From: a virus
Lineage: Duplodnaviria > Caudoviricetes
Strand: one strand, 5' to 3'
DNA: 62,724 bases
IMG/VR virus record: IMGVR_UViG_3300037262_000044
Coordinates: 1 to 62,724 of that record
Positions 1,981 to 62,724 of this stretch are shown here, in pieces. Position 1 is the first letter of the stretch, and each line of letters starts with the position of its first letter. The notes under the pieces are model-generated. The model saw nothing but the letters and a program-made list of their open reading frames with translations, had not been told where the DNA came from and made no database searches. A program made the position numbers and the translations under genes.

Positions 1981-2177
1981 AAGTCATCGCCACCTACATC
2001 GTAGAAACCTGGGAAGGCAAAACGCTTCTCTATGAGACAGAAGGCGGCAAATGGTATATCCAGAAAATATCCGAAGACGATCACGGACGTTTTTTGGAGG
2101 TCAGGCTACGGGAAATTTCCGCCGATTCGGCATCTTATTATCTTACCCGAGACGAACCAAAAATCAACAAACCGTGA
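1977..2177 (+). CDS. Hypothetical protein
   Basis: ATGA-coupled start MKVIATYIVETW. Confidence 0.55.
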   Translation: MKVIATYIVETWEGKTLLYETEGGKWYIQKISEDDHGRFLEVRLREISADSASYYLTRDEPKINKP

Positions 2178-2269
2178 AAAATTACCAGCATCTCATCATC
2201 GTGATCGTCCGCTCCCTGGTGATCGGGGCGGCGTTGGCTTATGCGCTTTATATCTTAACTCAAAACTGA
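2174..2269 (+). CDS. Small membrane peptide
   Basis: GTGA-coupled; one hydrophobic helix LIIVIVRSLVIGAALAYALYIL. Confidence 0.45.
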   Translation: MKNYQHLIIVIVRSLVIGAALAYALYILTQN

Positions 2270-2274
2270 AAAAT

Positions 2275-3057
2275 ATGAAAGATGCACTCGGCGATCGCAT
2301 GAAGGCGAACTACGAAAGCAGGACACGCCAGTTTTTGATGCGGCGCAATTACACCGTGATCAGGATTGACGGAAAGGCTTTTCATACTTATACAAAGCAT
2401 TTGCAAAGCCCTTTTGATGACAATCTCATGCATGACATGGATTCAACGGCTGCCATCCTCTGTAAAGAGATTGGCGGGGCAAAGTTCGCATTCGTCCAAA
2501 GCGATGAGATTTCACTGCTCATCACCGACTTTGACGACCTTCAAACCCAGGCCTGGTTCGACTACAACGTGCAAAAAATGGTCAGTGTGAGCGCCAGCGT
2601 TGCAACCGCCGCCTTCAATCAATTCAGACAGCGCCGGGAGACCAATGATGTGTGGGGAATGAAACTGGCGCATTTCGATTCCAGGGTCTTCCAACTCCCG
2701 AACAAAAGCGAAGTGGAGAACTATTTCATCTGGCGCCAGCAGGACACGACCCGAAACAGCATCCTATCCGTTGCGCAAAGCCTATACAGCCACAAGCAAT
2801 TGGAGGGCAAAAACACCAGCGAATTACAGGAGATGATCTTTCAAAAGGGCATCAACTGGAATGATTACAAACCTTACTATAAACGCGGGCGCATGATCAT
2901 GAAAGAAGAATACGAAATTGAGCCCAATCCCTCAATTCCGGAGGCCATTATACAGTTGGCGCCCCCTACACTTCGGACCCGCTGGGTAATGAAGGAAGTC
3001 CCCATATTCACGCAGGAGCGGGAATTTATCAGCAACCTTATACCAGACAATCTATAA
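2275..3057 (+). CDS. thg1: Thg1-like protein (tRNA-His guanylyltransferase family, 3'-5' polymerase)
   Basis: LGDRMK.YE, RIDGKAFH, QSDEISL, FDSRVF and WRQQD motifs; likely start ATG 2275. Confidence 0.92.
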   Translation: MKDALGDRMKANYESRTRQFLMRRNYTVIRIDGKAFHTYTKHLQSPFDDNLMHDMDSTAAILCKEIGGAKFAFVQSDEISLLITDFDDLQTQAWFDYNVQKMVSVSASVATAAFNQFRQRRETNDVWGMKLAHFDSRVFQLPNKSEVENYFIWRQQDTTRNSILSVAQSLYSHKQLEGKNTSELQEMIFQKGINWNDYKPYYKRGRMIMKEEYEIEPNPSIPEAIIQLAPPTLRTRWVMKEVPIFTQEREFISNLIPDNL

Positions 3058-8167: not shown

Positions 8168-9619
8168 ATGGGAAATAGCCTCGCCATAGCCAGCCAGAAA
8201 CTTATCCGGGGGTTGTCCGCGAAATGGATCGGCGACCCTTACATTGCCGAGGCGGCCGTCCTGGTTCCTTCTCAGTTCCGCGATAACACCGGCGGTCCGA
8301 ACTGGTTCTTCGGCCCCAATGGGATCGATTACCGGTTCATCTTCGATGGGGCGACCTCGGCCACGAAAGCGTTCAATACGTGCCCGCCATTGGCTGCCAT
8401 CATCGGGCGCAAGGCGCAAGCCTATATTAATGGGAAGACGTTGCTGCTCAACACGAAGGGCAAAGACGCGACAGGTGACCAGGCCAAAAGGATCAGGAAA
8501 CTACTGCGGACTCCCAACCTAACGCAATCTTGGCAAGATTTTGAGGCGCAATTGGAGATTTTCGTCCTGCTGTTCGGATGGTGCCCTATTATGCCGATAT
8601 ACCCAGCCGGCTTCGAGGCGGTCTACGGGAACGACCTATCCCAGGCGTCGAGCATTCATATCATACCTCCGTACATGATTACGGCGATGGAGAATAAGAC
8701 CAAGATGTGGTACAGGGCCGAAAAGCCGAGCGACATTGTCACGAACCTGATTGTGCATTATCAGGATATGCATCAGGAGATCGATATCAATAAGCTGTTC
8801 ATCTTCAAAGACTTTACGCCGTCATTCAGTAGCCAATATTTCCCAGGTTCGCGGGTAAAGCCCTTGGCGATGCCGATTAATAATATTGCATCTGCTTATG
8901 AAGCGCGGAACGAACTGATCAATTACGCGGGCGCCCAGGGGTTGCTGACGCCAACGGTTGACAGCATGGGGCCCATCCCATTGAGAGAAGCCGAGAAAGA
9001 TCAATTACAGGCAGATTTTAAGCGCCAATACGGGAATAAGCGAGGACAATGGCGGCACATCATATCCCCGGCTCCGATGGACTGGAAGGCGATGGGCAAG
9101 CCTACCAAGGATTTAATGCTGTTTGAAGAAGTGGTCGATGACATCATGCGAATTTGTGACGCATACAATTATCCTTCGCCTCTATTGAATACGGAAAAAG
9201 GCCCCAACGTAAGTTCGGCGGACAGTTTCAAAAAGCAGGTCTACGAGGACGGCACCATTCCAGAGTCCATAGCAATGTACGATCAGTGGAACAAGTTTTT
9301 TAAGCTTGACGACAGTCCGATGTCGCTATCGAAGTCTTACGACCACCTGCCGATACTTCAACAGGACCAGGTTTTGATGGGGCAAGCCCGCTTGAACATG
9401 AATCAGGCATTGGAAATTGAGTGGGAAAATAACCTGATCACGTTGAACTATTGGCGGATGCAGAACGGGATAGATCCAACGGAGGATGGCGATATCTATT
9501 ATTACCAGACCCAAGGGCATGCGTCTTTATTGGATCAAGCCCCTGCATTGCCCACGGAGAACCAACCAAAATTTGAGCCGGCTGCGGCTCCGGCAACAGA
9601 AACAGAACCTCAAACATAA
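8168..9619 (+). CDS. Portal protein (HK97-like)
   Basis: LLRTPNLTQSWQDF, ICDAYNYP..LL motifs; size and position before the protease. Confidence 0.88.
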   Translation: MGNSLAIASQKLIRGLSAKWIGDPYIAEAAVLVPSQFRDNTGGPNWFFGPNGIDYRFIFDGATSATKAFNTCPPLAAIIGRKAQAYINGKTLLLNTKGKDATGDQAKRIRKLLRTPNLTQSWQDFEAQLEIFVLLFGWCPIMPIYPAGFEAVYGNDLSQASSIHIIPPYMITAMENKTKMWYRAEKPSDIVTNLIVHYQDMHQEIDINKLFIFKDFTPSFSSQYFPGSRVKPLAMPINNIASAYEARNELINYAGAQGLLTPTVDSMGPIPLREAEKDQLQADFKRQYGNKRGQWRHIISPAPMDWKAMGKPTKDLMLFEEVVDDIMRICDAYNYPSPLLNTEKGPNVSSADSFKKQVYEDGTIPESIAMYDQWNKFFKLDDSPMSLSKSYDHLPILQQDQVLMGQARLNMNQALEIEWENNLITLNYWRMQNGIDPTEDGDIYYYQTQGHASLLDQAPALPTENQPKFEPAAAPATETEPQT

Positions 9620-58161: not shown

Positions 58162-58513
58162 AGACAAGCAGTTCAGTTCCACGCGGCAACCGACTCCCCA
58201 GGCGAAAAGCAACGGGCTACTGAAAAAGAAAACCGGCGTGGAACTGGCCCGGGCAATATTGCAACTCTCGTTTGAAGGCGCGAAAGATTCGCCACTCAAA
58301 AAAGCCGCCGCAGATTACTTCAAAATCTCCGAGCAAGAAATCACGGTCGAAATGATGTTGATGTTCCGCCAGGCCGAGAAGGCGGTTCAAAAAGGCGATA
58401 CACGGGCCTTTGAAGCGGTCATGGATCGGGCGTTTGGCAAGCCAAAGCAGGAAACTAAGATAAATGGCACTCTTGATCTTAATCTTTCCGATCTGTCAAT
58501 CACTTTCAAATAA
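58100..58513 (+). CDS. terS: Terminase small subunit
   Basis: VG.GKPPK..QF, KA.KGD.RA...MDR.FGKPKQ; upstream of TerL. Confidence 0.7.
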   Translation: MQDTGKPREKRKDVGPGKPPKDKQFSSTRQPTPQAKSNGLLKKKTGVELARAILQLSFEGAKDSPLKKAAADYFKISEQEITVEMMLMFRQAEKAVQKGDTRAFEAVMDRAFGKPKQETKINGTLDLNLSDLSITFK

Positions 58514-59154
58514 TGAAGTTAAAGGACATTAAGGGACAACGTTTCGGTAAGCTTTCTGTTATCGAATATGCCGGCAAGAATCGAACTTCCGCACAATGGC
58601 TTTGTGAATGCGATTGCGGAAACATTTGCATTGTAGTTGGAAATAAATTAAGATCCGGCCATACCAAAAGTTGTTCATGTGGACAAAAAGAAGCGGCCAG
58701 TATCGGCAATTTCATTCATGGCATGAAAGATACATCAGAATATGGAAGTTGGCAAGCCATGAAAGAAAGGTGTTATAACCCGAATAGCGCTAGTTACCAA
58801 TATTATGGAGGCAAGGGCATCATCGTTTGCCCTGAATGGAAAGATGATTTTTTAGCGTTTTTTGCTGACATGGGGCTAAAACCAGATCCATCCTATACAA
58901 TAGAGCGAACGTATAATTCATTGAATTATGGGCCAGAGAACTGTTATTGGGCCTCTAAGATGGCGCAAGGGGCTAATACTTCGAGAAATAGAAGGATTTC
59001 ATTTAATGGCGAAGTGAAAATACTTGCAGAATGGATGAGGTATTTCCAAGTTTCCCCTCAATATTTTTACATATTAGAACGAAAAAACGGAGTTGAAGGC
59101 GCATTTTCAATCCTTTATGCCAAAAGTAATCGTAGAATCTCTACAGCCATATAA
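58513..59154 (+). CDS. HNH homing endonuclease
   Basis: GQRFGKL.V, WLCECDCG, SCSCG, W.AMK.RC.NP, YGGKGI.VC.EW, Y.PENC.WA. Confidence 0.9.
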   Translation: MKLKDIKGQRFGKLSVIEYAGKNRTSAQWLCECDCGNICIVVGNKLRSGHTKSCSCGQKEAASIGNFIHGMKDTSEYGSWQAMKERCYNPNSASYQYYGGKGIIVCPEWKDDFLAFFADMGLKPDPSYTIERTYNSLNYGPENCYWASKMAQGANTSRNRRISFNGEVKILAEWMRYFQVSPQYFYILERKNGVEGAFSILYAKSNRRISTAI

Positions 59155-60505
59155 GCCTCTTTATGATCTGCCGATCGATACCAATCTAATTATTCTCATC
59201 GGCGGCCGTGGGTCTGGCAAGACTTATGAAGCCTCAAAATGGATAACCTTTCAAGCTTGTATCAAGAAAAAGCGCTGCGTAATTCTGCGGGACGAAAAAG
59301 CCCTAATCCGGGAAAGTATCCTAAATGAAGTCATGTTGAGATATGAGACTGCCAATGAAAGCGGTGTCTTAGACCGGTTTTATCAAAAATTAGAAACTGG
59401 CATAAAAGACATGCAATCATCTGAAATGTTGGTATTTACAAAAGGTTTTCGTGCCAGTAGAACAGACAAAAAGGCACATATGAAATCTATATCCAACATC
59501 GATTATTGCATTATCGAAGAAATGGAGGATATTGTTGATCAAGACGCGTTTAACTCCCTTGTTGATGGAATCAGGAATGAAGGGAGTATTGTCATGCTTA
59601 TTCTGAATACTCCACACATTTCACATTTTGTTATTACTCGGTATTTTACCCTTGAAAAGGTCGAAGACGGTTATTACGACGTTATCCCCAAACAAATCCC
59701 CGGCCTGGTCGTCATCAAAACCAATTTTGAGGATAATCCATATTTGCCACCGACGATCGTCGAACGGTATAAGGCCTATGGGGATCCCGCCAGCCATCTA
59801 TTCAACAAGCATTACTACCTGACGGCCATCAAGGGCCTGGCCAGCACCGGCCGCAAAGGACAAATATTCAGCGGGTGGAAGAGCATTACCAATCAGCAGT
59901 TCAACGAGATTGATGCCCGGTCCATCTTCGGGCAGGACTTCGGAACTACTTCACCCGCTGCCCTGGTGGAGGCAAAGATCATCAACAACCGGATTTACAT
60001 CCGCCAACACAGTTACGTGGGCATGACCGAAAAACAGATCGGAATCCTCTATTGCCGGCTGGGAATCAAAGAAGAGGTGATCATCGCGGACTCCGCCGAA
60101 CCCATGGCGATACGCCGCCTGCGGTCTGGCTGGTCACTCAGTGAGCTATCGGACGAAGAGCGGGCGGATTATGCCGCATGGCAGGGAGAGGCGCTTAAAC
60201 CGGCTGTAATGACCCCACACGCTGTGCCTGTTGAGATAAAACCATGGAAATATGCCCGGCTTTTGACCGGGTTTCACATCTTCCCGGCATTCAAAGGCCC
60301 CGGAACGGTGATTGCGGGGATCAAAAAGGTAATGGATTATGAGGTGTTCGTGACCGAAGATTCGACGGATATTTGGTTTGAATACGCGAATTATGTATGG
60401 GCTGTAGACCGGCATGGCTTAACCCTGGATGAGCCGGAAGATGCCCATAATCATTGCGCTGACTGCATCAGGTACCTAATCTCTGGTAAAGGAAGATACT
60501 ATTAA
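59117..60505 (+). CDS. terL: Terminase large subunit (PBSX-type)
   Basis: GGRGSGKT Walker A, IIEE Walker B, ILN, DNPYL, GQDFG, ADSAEP, D.HNHCAD.IRY. Confidence 0.93.
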   Translation: MPKVIVESLQPYKPLYDLPIDTNLIILIGGRGSGKTYEASKWITFQACIKKKRCVILRDEKALIRESILNEVMLRYETANESGVLDRFYQKLETGIKDMQSSEMLVFTKGFRASRTDKKAHMKSISNIDYCIIEEMEDIVDQDAFNSLVDGIRNEGSIVMLILNTPHISHFVITRYFTLEKVEDGYYDVIPKQIPGLVVIKTNFEDNPYLPPTIVERYKAYGDPASHLFNKHYYLTAIKGLASTGRKGQIFSGWKSITNQQFNEIDARSIFGQDFGTTSPAALVEAKIINNRIYIRQHSYVGMTEKQIGILYCRLGIKEEVIIADSAEPMAIRRLRSGWSLSELSDEERADYAAWQGEALKPAVMTPHAVPVEIKPWKYARLLTGFHIFPAFKGPGTVIAGIKKVMDYEVFVTEDSTDIWFEYANYVWAVDRHGLTLDEPEDAHNHCADCIRYLISGKGRYY

Positions 60506-60545: not shown

Positions 60546-61211
60546 ATGAAAAATAATGAAAAAATTCCTGCCGGATGCATTATCAAATATGGCCAAGATG
60601 AATACCCTTTCCAGGAATTCAATGGCAAAAGATATCATCTTTACACTGGCGAACGATATTATTCCAGGGGCACAAAAAGGCTTCATGTAACTATATATAA
60701 ATTCTATTACGGGGCCGTCCCGAAAGGATATCATGTTCACCATAAAGACGAAAACCCACTCAACAATCATCCGCTAAATTTGGAAATGATGCTTGGAAGG
60801 GATCACCTGGCATATCACATGAAGGATAGAGATAAGGAAGAAATGCGTAAAACAATGAACTATGCCAGAACTTTTGCAGACAAATGGCATGGAACTGAAG
60901 AGGGGCTGGCATGGCATCGGGCGCACGCAAAAAACTCCTTGAAGAAAAAAGAGGTTCATAAAATATGCGCTAACTGCGGAAAGCCATTTAAGACTATTGC
61001 CGTCAACGATAAGGGGCATGCCAAATTTTGTTCCGACAATTGTAAAAATACCTCTCGTTTCAGAAGCGGAGTGGATAATATTGAAACGACTTGTCCAATA
61101 TGCGGAAAGAAAAAAATGCGAAACAAATATTCAAAATCAGTTACTTGCGGGAAATCATGCGGCCGGAAACTATTAAAACAGCGTAAAGCTAATTCAGTCT
61201 CAACTCCTTAA
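60546..61211 (+). CDS. HNH homing endonuclease with C-terminal zinc ribbons
   Basis: RLH...G.VPKGYHVHHKD.N.LNN...NL; CANCGK, FCSDNC, CPICGK. Confidence 0.88.
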   Translation: MKNNEKIPAGCIIKYGQDEYPFQEFNGKRYHLYTGERYYSRGTKRLHVTIYKFYYGAVPKGYHVHHKDENPLNNHPLNLEMMLGRDHLAYHMKDRDKEEMRKTMNYARTFADKWHGTEEGLAWHRAHAKNSLKKKEVHKICANCGKPFKTIAVNDKGHAKFCSDNCKNTSRFRSGVDNIETTCPICGKKKMRNKYSKSVTCGKSCGRKLLKQRKANSVSTP

Positions 61212-61585: not shown

Positions 61586-62209
61586 ATGGACAAAATGACC
61601 ATTCACCGCGCACTCAGCGAGTTAAAGCTGATCGACGCGAAGATCGAAAAGGCAACTGCCCAGGTAAATCCGTCCGGTATCTATCAGAAGGGTCGGCATA
61701 TCAACGGCTCCATCCCAGAGGAAGATTTCAAGACCTTGGCGCAATCGACCTACGATTCCTGCATCGGGCTGATGGGCCGCAAAACCGCTATCAAATCGGC
61801 TATCGTTCAATCAAATGGGAAAACGACCGTTAAGATCGGCGACAAGGTAATGACCGTTGCCGACGCCATTACCGCCAAAGCGATCATTAAGTTCAAAAAG
61901 GCGTTCATAGCCAATTTGACCAACCGGCACCGTGCCCAGGTAGCAGCGTTGAACACCAACAACTCGGTAGTGATGCAGAATGCCCAAAAACTTCTGGAAG
62001 CCGCTATGGGGAAGGATAACACGAAGGTGACGAAGGAGGACGTCGAGGCAATCCGCAAGCCTTTTATCGACAACAACGAATTCCACTTGTTCGACCCGCT
62101 GAAGATCGAAGACAAAATCAAGGTCCTGGAAAAAGAGGTCGGCGACTTCGAGGCGGATGTCGATGCGGTCCTGTCCGAGTCCAACGCCGTGACATTCATT
62201 GAATTCTAA
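61586..62209 (+). CDS. Coiled-coil hairpin protein of unknown function (loosely DIP1984-like)
   Basis: MTIHRALSELKLIDAKI...MTVADAI..K...DPL...DVDAVLSESNA.T.IEF. Confidence 0.8.
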   Translation: MDKMTIHRALSELKLIDAKIEKATAQVNPSGIYQKGRHINGSIPEEDFKTLAQSTYDSCIGLMGRKTAIKSAIVQSNGKTTVKIGDKVMTVADAITAKAIIKFKKAFIANLTNRHRAQVAALNTNNSVVMQNAQKLLEAAMGKDNTKVTKEDVEAIRKPFIDNNEFHLFDPLKIEDKIKVLEKEVGDFEADVDAVLSESNAVTFIEF

Positions 62210-62212
62210 CAA

Positions 62213-62546
62213 TATTGGCCGGTCTTACGAAAATGGTAAATTCTATTCCCGCTGATCCTTCTGGGTTAAAAAGGATCATCCAATTGTTAACTGGACAATC
62301 TTTGTATTCTAGGTTCGAATCCTGGCATCGGTCTTAAAAACCGACGTGGCGGAACGGTAAACGCAAAAGACAAACAACCTAAAAGCTCACGGCTCAAAGG
62401 TTAAAGGTCAAACCTCACCGCTCAAAGTTCTTTCCGATCAAAGATGAAACCTTAAAACGCAAAGCTCTTTCAAACCCTGTATAAATTTTCATGGGGACTA
62501 ATAGATCACCCCTGCCGTTTGATCCAGGCTGTAGGATCGGCCAATA
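62213..62546 (+). ncRNA. Candidate structured ncRNA with a permuted tRNA-like domain and heptamer repeats
   Basis: 62213-62228 pairs with 62531-62546 (16 bp, two G-U); internal hairpins; T-arm and D-arm motifs; no ORF of 60 aa or more. Confidence 0.75.
62375..62467 (+). repeat. Degenerate 7-nt tandem repeat (consensus about AAAGCTC)
   Basis: About 12 units read directly, with one 9-nt interruption. Confidence 0.8.
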
Positions 62547-62565
62547 CTTTTTAAAAATATTAACT

Positions 62566-62724
62566 ATGTGGGGAGAAAAATTTCATAGCAGTCAAAAGGT
62601 GTACGTGATCTATCACAACGTATATATCGCTGGCATCCATGTATTTCAACCGCCTGCACCCGGAGTCATTCTATGGCGGCATCCTGTTCGCAAAAAGCAC
62701 CATTTCGCCACTGATGAAGAAGGT
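62566..62724 (+). CDS. 5' part of the junction-spanning hypothetical gene
   Basis: In frame with 2..355. Confidence 0.65.
   Translation, partial: MWGEKFHSSQKVYVIYHNVYIAGIHVFQPPAPGVILWRHPVRKKHHFATDEEG
62598..62724. repeat. 127-bp terminal direct repeat, right copy
   Basis: Identical to 1-127. Confidence 0.95.

Follow-up and report, generated by a model that had tools for sequence, protein, structure and literature searches.

A circularly permuted tRNA-like module in the variable slot of a structured phage RNA

Introduction

For the YrlA Y RNAs, excerpts of the published accounts (PMC4201824, 10.1101/312249) describe a tRNA-like domain made of a T arm, a closed acceptor-like stem-loop and a D arm, which are joined via an anticodon-like stem. 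According to the same excerpts, the anticodon loop and the CCA end are absent, the tRNA tertiary pairs are kept, and the domain is described as resembling circularly permuted tRNAs; the closed permuted fold is recognised by TruB and DusA. For the YrlA of M. smegmatis, which has a 7-bp stem, the excerpts of PMC4201824 report that RNase P cuts and that CCA is added. Here, we describe a domain with the same order of parts at positions 62299-62370 of a phage record (IMG/VR record IMGVR_UViG_3300037262_000044; Duplodnaviria, Caudoviricetes), and throughout this text 'the window' means the whole 62,724-nt stretch of DNA that was analysed. On comparative grounds, the domain is a circularly permuted tRNA cloverleaf, and it forms part of a structured RNA of ~335 nt that begins just downstream of an open reading frame (ORF) for a 207-aa protein.

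In red algae and some archaea, permuted tRNA genes have their 3' half upstream of their 5' half, and a short intervening sequence connects the acceptor ends. Such genes mature to normal decoding tRNAs via a circular intermediate made by the splicing endonuclease. The abstract of PMC3978253 treats this class of genes. A further system that brings a tRNA body into a larger RNA is GOLLD, where, in the portion of 10.1101/2024.12.08.627333 available, the variable linker sometimes has covalently linked tRNAs.

Our starting point was a sequence-only reading of the window, which had taken 62299-62370 for a tRNA mimic in circularly permuted order, with the anticodon loop as its point of opening and a closed acceptor-like hairpin. 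Both re-permutation and covariation bear this out. As to what the module does, we lean, at slightly better than even strength, towards a closed elbow mimic that would dock a host or phage factor recognising tRNA shape, carried in a slot of the ~335-nt phage RNA.

A permuted tRNA cloverleaf under selection

All segments named in the sequence-only reading were found in place when the sequence was re-read. From 5' to 3', the module runs from the 3' strand of the anticodon stem through the variable loop, the T arm, a closed acceptor-like hairpin and the D arm to the 5' strand of the anticodon stem, as follows:

62299-62303, + strand: anticodon-stem 3' strand TCTTT (helix 1), pairing with 62366-62370
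62304-62308, + strand: variable loop GTATT, 5 nt, in which T48 pairs with A15
62309-62325, + strand: T arm CTAGG-TTCGAAT-CCTGG, with 5 bp including one G-U and the loop TTCGAAT
62326-62346, + strand: acceptor-like hairpin, CATCGGT (62326-62332) against ACCGACG (62340-62346), 6/7 paired, loop CTTAAAA, no CCA
62347-62365, + strand: U8-G9, D arm GCGG-AACGGTAA-ACGC and A26 (TG and D arm at 62347-62364, A at 62365)
62366-62370, + strand: anticodon-stem 5' strand AAAGA, pairing back to 62299-62303

The spacings of a tRNA are kept, as had been claimed, with 2 nt between the acceptor and D stems, 1 nt between the D and anticodon stems, a variable loop of 5 nt and 0 nt between the T stem and the acceptor. 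Both the anticodon loop and the free acceptor end are indeed missing: the sequence continues from AAAGA into CAAACAACC, and CTTAAAA links the two acceptor strands. The AAAGA/TCTTT stem opens into the central junction of the RNA, not into an anticodon loop. The canonical tRNA core is complete in the window (U8, A14, G18-G19, A21, T54-T55-C56, A58, 15:48 and 19:56), and the acceptor-like stem has a C-A mismatch, C3-G70 and no CCA. In the close relative L003, this stem is of wholly different sequence and still complementary. Across all 23 parsed modules, the acceptor strands span seven positions with at least six pairs, and several are capped by loops of 3-4 nt.

After the halves had been reordered by a script, ARAGORN called a tRNA for the window and all homologous modules (23/23), compared with 0/23 in native order and with 0/300 dinucleotide shuffles each for the window, L025 and L029 (0/900). 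The 19 anticodon-open modules among them were given an artificial 7-nt loop before ARAGORN was run, and the resulting 'Cys' label is artificial, not natural. A covariance model of the permuted cloverleaf, R1, was built from 19 seed sequences, including the window. It produced 48 matches in 74 sources, and its sole match in the window, which is itself in the seed, covers exactly 62299-62370 at 64.4 bits. The weaker R1 matches include junctions of tandem tRNA genes, which are a known false-positive type (L033 and L027, at 31-49 bits).

Covariation was assessed on the 28 distinct R1 matches of at least 59 bits. Paired cells make up 97.6% of 574, against 66.3 +/- 1.4% in shuffles, and both sides have changed in 18 of the 21 pairs; none of 500 shuffles matches any measure, and slid partners are 31-45% paired. 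Helix 1, the equivalent of TCTTT/AAAGA, is 100% paired with 5/5 pairs covarying, helix 2 (the T stem) is 97.9% paired with 4/5 covarying, helix 3 (the acceptor-like stem) is 95.6% paired with 7/7 covarying, and helix 4 (the D stem) is 97.3% paired.

The nucleotides that build the tRNA elbow are also retained in these sequences. U8, A14, A21, T54-T55 and A58 are invariant (28/28), and 15:48 is G:C in 25 sequences, A:U in two (the window and L003) and A-C in one (L081). Of the 28 sequences, 24 have C at position 56, with GG in the D loop of 23 of these and AG in the remaining one (L021). The sequences with A56 (L047, L049 and L067) carry U at position 19 and the one with U56 (L046) carries A there, position 19 in the D loops of these four being our own assignment. 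The tertiary pairs 19:56 and 15:48 thus covary, which as comparative evidence supports a predicted contact between the D and T loops and the intact elbow that the sequence-only reading had implied.

In its native order, the module does not present itself as a canonical tRNA. ARAGORN found no tRNA gene in the window, Rfam gave 0 matches in the window at the gathering score, and there is no 7-nt anticodon loop. At E<=10, the Rfam matches in the window are limited to 11 nt of the T loop aligned to tmRNA and a partial match to the tRNA model, which is insignificant (14.3 bits, E 1.3) and weakly aligns a neighbouring hairpin of the larger RNA (H3, described below) as an anticodon arm.

A resemblance due to chance, an attP-type fragment or the junction of decaying tandem tRNA genes might be proposed instead, and tandem junctions do score with the permuted model, as seen in L033 and L027 at 31-49 bits; tandems of this kind are the probable source of permuted tRNAs. 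We nevertheless consider this account of the window very improbable. The window has no tRNA genes and its acceptor strands pair across a 7-nt loop, and the account is contradicted both by the compensatory changes in 28 distinct sequences and by the 0/900 shuffles that pass re-permutation. The attP-type remnant of a tRNA fragment was rejected because both halves are present, paired with each other and covarying. The comparisons show, at the level of sequence, that 62299-62370 is a real and selected circularly permuted tRNA cloverleaf, in which the tertiary pairs of the elbow are preserved.

The ~335-nt RNA and its variable slot

The module is not an independent small RNA but a domain of an RNA of ~335 nt (62213-62546, + strand, followed by a T run). 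In addition to the module, this RNA has the following parts:

62213-62228, + strand: 5' strand of P1, the terminal closing helix, beginning 4 nt past the stop of the 207-aa ORF
62229-62233, + strand: junction motif GAAAA directly after P1, found as (C/T)GAAAA in all homologues used and taken as an anchor
62248-62278, + strand: candidate H-type pseudoknot, CCC (62248-62250) with GGG (62263-62265)
62253-62260 and 62271-62278, + strand: candidate second stem of the pseudoknot, TGATCCTT with AAGGATCA
62279-62295, + strand: core hairpin H3, TCCA/TGGA, a by-eye proposal, with loop ATTGTTAAC in the window and TGCTAA in most homologues
62378-62464, + strand: AAAG heptad array, with 7 units (62378-62427), spacer TTCTTTCCG (62428-62436) and 4 units (62437-62464)
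62465-62479, + strand: conserved CTCTTTCAAACCC motif, running into the P2 5' strand CCTG (62476-62479)
62493-62512, + strand: P3 hairpin, GGGG (62493-62496) with CCCC (62509-62512), loop ACTAATAGATCA
62525-62530, + strand: P2 3' strand CAGG (62525-62528) and the CT of the conserved GGCTG junction
62531-62546, + strand: P1 3' strand, pairing with 62213-62228 in 16 bp including 2 G-U
62548-62552, + strand: T run after the P1 3' strand; a T run follows P1 in most homologues

Among 42 distinct RNAs, P1 occurs in 37 different sequences, and its 504 positions comprise 437 Watson-Crick, 47 G-U, 8 A-C and 12 other combinations; the G-U excess suggests a + strand RNA, though the locus filter behind these counts took G-U as paired. 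P1 appears in the minimum free energy (MFE) fold of the window RNA, and the fold of the whole RNA is better than that of shuffles (z = -2.18; 2/100 shuffles as good). The P1 3' strand and the T run are the probable 3' end of the RNA, and a scan for promoters and terminators gave counts not above those in shuffles. P3 was recovered by RNAalifold in 34 sequences with four pairs, three of them showing double changes, and positions 3 and 4 of P2 have changed on both sides in 21 and 19 of the 34 sequences, respectively.

The 5' domain is less clearly defined. RNAalifold gave 0 pairs there, on a poor MAFFT alignment. The pseudoknot is a by-eye proposal: the sequence of its second stem varies, with complementarity kept by eye in L021, L022, L027, L029 and L042, and a permissive pseudoknot search did not separate real sequences (mean 10.3) from shuffles (9.2). 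H3 is found in RNAs both with and without the tRNA module. Its loop, mostly TGCTAA and in the window holding the palindrome GTTAAC, is complementary to a split TTAG…GCA of the adjacent pseudoknot region, which could be an alternative or an intermolecular pairing.

The eleven A-rich heptads (7 + 4) ending in AAAG are the most sequence-conserved part of the RNA in the alignment of the 42 RNAs. A TTCTTT-type segment comes after each of the two heptad blocks. By eye, several homologues show complementarity between the first CTTTAC-type segment and the last GTAAAG unit, with compensatory changes (ACGC/GCGT against ACAC/GTGT). Between the window and L003, the 207-aa ORF is 86.2% identical at the DNA level and 62371-62532 is nearly identical; the acceptor-like hairpin is entirely replaced, and the differences between the two RNAs lie mostly in helices and are compensatory.

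The presence of the module varies among homologous RNAs, a point that the sequence-only reading had raised and that the 42 distinct RNAs confirm. In the slot where it sits, 21 RNAs have an anticodon-open module, 4 a variable-arm-open module, 6 a normal-order insert and 11 no module at all. The anticodon-open group includes the window and also L039, which has an intact long variable-arm hairpin. The variable-arm-open modules (L004, L026, L029 and L076) are permuted tRNAs of the Leu/Ser type with a complete anticodon arm. Normal-order tRNA or tRNA-like inserts were detected by ARAGORN in L030, L033 and L034, at a relaxed threshold only in L059, and by eye in L066 and L072. The RNAs of L046 and L089 are identical over their 5'-terminal 81 nt and 3'-terminal 164 nt, and their sole difference is an 84-nt module in one versus a 32-nt hairpin in the other.

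That the slot tolerates a plain hairpin, as in the 11/42 RNAs and in L089 compared with L046, would suit a module that acts as an architectural brick, i.e. a rigid L-fold within a larger, possibly multimeric assembly of the kind formed by ROOL/GOLLD cages, with no trans-acting partner. The covalently linked tRNAs in the variable linker of GOLLD, as given in the part of 10.1101/2024.12.08.627333 available, point in the same direction. We regard this role as unlikely, however: a spacer needs neither the invariant U8, A14, A21, T54-T55 and A58 nor a fixed 7-position acceptor arm, and the three ways in which the tRNA shape is plugged in suggest that the shape itself is wanted.

Coverage in RNA libraries

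Of the RNA-library runs that were found to contain parts of 62100-62600, four metatranscriptome runs from four studies were used here, and their contigs cover 62236-62544. None of these contigs reaches into the upstream ORF or past 62544, an absence that carries no evidential weight. The contig of run X5 contains a 100%-identical insert corresponding to 62236-62479, which is flanked by adapters and has a depth of 59. Run X14 covers 62296-62527, and X18 covers 62288-62522 with a different, L003-like acceptor hairpin. Run X17 has three contigs over 62356-62544, one of which ends at 62544. The acceptor loop is bridged by contigs of X5, X14 and X18, and together these contigs are moderate evidence that the uncleaved form of the module is present in RNA libraries.

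Comparison with known RNA families

The sequence-only reading had likened the T-before-D topology to that of YrlA, and as far as the excerpts of PMC4201824 and 10.1101/312249 describe it, the topology is the same. YrlA (RF02553) and the window module share the order of parts, the attachment through the anticodon stem, the lack of an anticodon loop and of a CCA, and the kept tertiary pairs. The absence of Ro60/TROVE (PF05731) is likewise confirmed, with 0 in the window and 0/16 in related phage records. Unlike YrlA, which is 80-130 nt long, the window RNA is ~335 nt (~3x) and has AAAG heptads, extra helices and a sequence-variable terminal helix. Its module is optional and takes three topologies, and no neighbouring or phage-encoded Ro60 gene was found.

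Searches with the YrlA model gave no match in the window at the gathering score, nor at E<=10 in 131 nt. Among the homologues, the model aligns full-length to L025 (33.4 bits, E 5e-4) and L022 (30.9 bits), with a cut-off of 69. In G017, the genome that contains the identical contig, TROVE was not found, and 1/5 candidate host genomes has a match; the same search recovered the control genomes. The Ro60-binding motif of the terminal-stem 5' strand, GNCGAAN(0-1)G, is unmatched in the window, where P1 is followed by TTACGAAAATGG and CGAA alone is shared. By the tests run (score, Ro60 gene, size, binding motif and variable terminal helix), the RNA is not a member of the YrlA family.

We also hold it to be improbable that the RNA is a divergent Y RNA, whose terminal helix and CGAAAA junction would bind host Ro60/Rsr and whose module would bind an effector. 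In its favour are the common succession of T arm, closed acceptor and D arm, the terminal helix formed from the 5' and 3' ends in both, and the full-length alignments of the YrlA model to L025 and L022. Those alignments, however, score far under 69 bits and have no counterpart in the window, TROVE was found in neither the window, the 16 phage records nor G017 and in only 1/5 host genomes, and the 37 variants of P1, the unmatched Ro60 motif and the ~3x size are out of keeping with a Y RNA.

For the RNA as a whole, the nearest kind is GOLLD/ROOL. In the portions of the literature available, these are also large structured phage or prophage RNAs, often beside tRNA islands, and the variable linker of GOLLD may hold tRNAs much as the conserved core here has a variable slot able to hold a tRNA. 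The RNA described here is much smaller than GOLLD and ROOL, and its slot contains mostly permuted closed mimics, not excisable tRNAs. Neither the GOLLD (RF01998) nor the ROOL (RF03087) model matched the window or those homologous loci that were searched, whether at the gathering score or at E<=5.

The permuted tmRNA (RF04321) resembles the module in its order of T arm, acceptor 3' strand, loop, acceptor 5' strand and D-like region, and in that the counterpart of the anticodon stem opens onto a long domain further downstream. Unlike the permuted tmRNA, the window has a full D stem and has no tag reading frame, G3:U70 or CCA. The tmRNA_permuted model gave only a partial match, at E 3 in L029, and the heptad region of relatives has stops in all frames. 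A tmRNA was rejected as the identity of the RNA, there being no significant Rfam or ARAGORN call in the window and no ARAGORN call at the RNA in 15 loci. One locus, L027, has a true permuted tmRNA at 1983-2363 (RF04321, 59.6 bits; ARAGORN tmRNA with tag peptide). There, the permuted tmRNA and five tRNA genes lie just upstream of the 207-aa gene, and an RNA of the ~335-nt type lies downstream of the same gene.

The module differs from the permuted tRNA genes of algae and archaea in lacking an anticodon loop (in the window type), in having open ends that continue into a larger RNA and in its bacteriophage setting. The missing anticodon loop argues against maturation of the window type to a decoding tRNA in the manner of those genes.

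RAGATH-27 (RF03100) aligns to the 5' domain in a distant subgroup of the RNAs, at L031 3165-3251 with 53.1 bits and at L033 3139-3205 with 30 bits. Its consensus (…CGAAAA…AAACUAUAAU…) overlaps the 5' domain, including the CGAAAA junction. It differs in covering ~86 nt of that domain without a tRNA module, the alignments lie below the 76.1-bit cut-off, and the window gave no match. Possibly, RAGATH-27 describes part of the same class of RNA; a full-text literature search for RAGATH-27 found no paper.

Among the papers listed in full-text searches on permuted tRNAs, apart from the ~10,000 viral candidate RNAs of PMC10690425 and the YrlA phage loci of PMC4201824, no phage RNA of this kind appeared, and the RNA may be among those ~10,000 candidates. 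At the gathering score, it belongs to no Rfam 15 family. No described family matches the ~335-nt RNA or the role of its tRNA-like domain.

Genomic context and distribution

The window is a complete phage record, the last 127 nt of which (62598-62724) exactly repeat the first 127 (1-127). The simplest view of this repeat is that the assembly of a genome which is circular or circularly permuted overlaps at its ends, and that it is not a biological terminal repeat; the assembly is therefore circular, and the intergenic stretch with the RNA continues across the ends of the record. A comparison of 62200-62600 with the GenBank phage collection by blastn gave no match. The genes upstream of the RNA include:

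58513-59154 and 60546-61211, + strand: two HNH endonuclease genes flanking the large terminase gene (phrog_374 at 4.7e-63, Pfam HNH_3 at 2.5e-11)
59093-60505: large terminase
61586-62209: 207-aa ORF directly upstream of the RNA (phrog_1491, annotated 'tail fiber protein', 1.3e-56)

The 207-aa protein has a helical predicted structure with a predicted local distance difference test (pLDDT) value of 88. This structure has no PDB matches at E<=0.001, the best being 3kdq (function unknown) at E 4.8e-3, and it gave no clue to RNA binding. The gene also has an identical copy in a metagenome-assembled genome with the label Chitinophagaceae (contig L104), which is a weak hint of a Bacteroidota host for the window phage.

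The protein has at least 489 relatives. Loci were searched for with an alignment (A1) of 18 of these relatives, and those fetched comprise 16 from viral contigs, 68 from metagenomes and 52 from genomes. At nearly all loci with enough downstream DNA, the structured RNA follows the stop codon of the 207-aa gene by a few to ~150 nt, mostly <60, and in the loci read the RNA measures 242-475 nt. A first DNA pattern scan returned only two already known relatives and chance matches in coding DNA. When loci were found by the pattern of the RNA alone, 11/12 evaluable ones had the 207-aa gene directly upstream; a further locus, L161, has too little upstream DNA to be judged, and L159 is a chance match. 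The evaluable locus without the gene is L160. Its reverse strand (~8940-9420 of the turned locus) has two consecutive permuted tRNA-like modules and the conserved 3' domain; its 5' region is different, the 5' strand of P1 is not recognisable, and no 207-aa gene lies closer than 14.5 kb.

Cultivated Lysinibacillus, Sporosarcina and related Bacillota have prophages (L110-L155) with the 207-aa gene and the core of the RNA, in which the junction is GGCAG instead of GGCTG, and Tenacibaculum (L108) carries both as well. The Lysinibacillus and Sporosarcina prophage RNAs inspected by eye have no tRNA-like module, and no Rfam family was found at the RNA in the genome-contig loci (L110-L155).

Elsewhere in the window, a 341-aa ORF (2032-3057, + strand) matches Pfam Thg1 at 2.2e-28 and, more weakly, Thg1C at 3.3e-4 (21.3 bits, cut-off 26.3). 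Judged by these matches, it probably encodes a phage Thg1-like 3'-5' nucleotidyltransferase of the tRNA-repair type. The gene was rejected as a family partner of the RNA, as 0/16 related RNA-bearing phage records have Thg1, a close relative of L003 included.

The sequence-only reading had suggested that the module might be a decoy for defence nucleases that target tRNAs. The setting has some appeal, with a phage-borne RNA, phage tRNA arrays adjoining it in L004, L027, L033 and L035, and a tRNA-repair-type enzyme of the Thg1 kind in the window phage alone. For anticodon nucleases, the suggestion is not supported, as a module without an anticodon loop cannot attract them. More generally, a decoy seems to us a poor prospect, given that Thg1 is absent from 16/16 related RNA-bearing records, that 11/42 RNAs dispense with the module and that any defence or anti-defence context is absent.

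Possible roles of the module

In the reading that we favour, the module is a closed elbow mimic that would be plugged via its anticodon stem into the central junction of the RNA, from which it would project as an L, presenting a canonical elbow and a 12-bp acceptor/T minihelix with a capped end. The window module would most likely stay uncleaved and would be unable to decode or to be charged. It would instead offer a docking surface to a partner that reads tRNA shape, in the form of the elbow and the minihelix length, and that partner would be tethered to the AAAG-heptad core, or the core to the partner. The recognition of the closed YrlA fold by TruB and DusA is a precedent. A closed, uncharged mimic is proposed because there is no CCA, the stem has a mismatch and contigs from RNA libraries bridge the loop. 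For the function of the core RNA, the AAAG heptads and the constant 207-aa neighbour gene are obvious leads.

Several points weigh against this reading. As 11/42 RNAs are without the module, it is therefore unneeded for the core function. The isolated 72-nt piece folds without a cloverleaf by MFE (z +0.40; 125/200 shuffles as stable), and the covariation counts rest on a model-fitted alignment of related sequences. RNA libraries can contain DNA, and their contigs show neither ends nor strand nor circles. In five homologues (L024, L025, L026, L048 and L063), the acceptor 3' strand is immediately followed by a retained NCCA, after which come a mini-hairpin and G1. This hints that some members are processed to a free end, unlike the window, and it also fits an origin of these homologues from tandem tRNA genes.

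The NCCA homologues bear most directly on the idea that the module is a handle for processing or charging, whereby RNase P would cut 5' of 62340, the loop would be trimmed and CCA added, giving a two-piece RNA that is perhaps aminoacylated. Two-piece precedents are available in the permuted tmRNA and the M. smegmatis YrlA, and a 7-position acceptor arm is cited as an RNase P determinant in the excerpts of PMC4201824. For the window we give this idea little credence: it has no CCA and a C-A mismatch in the stem, and contigs of three RNA runs bridge the loop. The 3-4-nt capping loops of many homologues are too short to accommodate a trailer, the window lacks G3:U70 as do most homologues, and there is neither a tag reading frame nor a tmRNA call.

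The docking of a closed elbow mimic can also be set within a broader picture, which we put forward tentatively and think less probable than not. The RNA may represent an undescribed class of phage 'ornate' RNAs, a smaller counterpart of GOLLD/ROOL with a universal slot that captures tRNA bodies as tethered adaptors. Such a class would be widely distributed among phages and prophages with links to Bacteroidota and Bacillota, with a core of terminal helix, 5' hairpins, eleven heptads and 3' hairpins, and would have captured tRNA bodies in at least three ways, by the anticodon stem, the variable arm or the acceptor stem. The module would bring the heptad array to the machinery that handles tRNAs or carries out translation, and the CCA variants would be cut to chargeable two-piece molecules.

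Conclusions

Closed permuted tRNA mimics were previously known from the Ro60-associated YrlA Y RNAs. What is new here is the same fold, under clear selection, in a different and much larger phage RNA without a Ro60 gene. One slot that holds tRNA bodies in three topologies, or none, is a ready-made comparative experiment, for example in the pair L046/L089, and the comparison of slots lets one ask how the tRNA elbow is used outside translation. With cultivable Lysinibacillus and Sporosarcina prophages and coverage in four metatranscriptome runs, the system is therefore directly testable. If the tentative picture of an ornate RNA class is true, these phages would provide a case of natural RNA domain shuffling by circular permutation.

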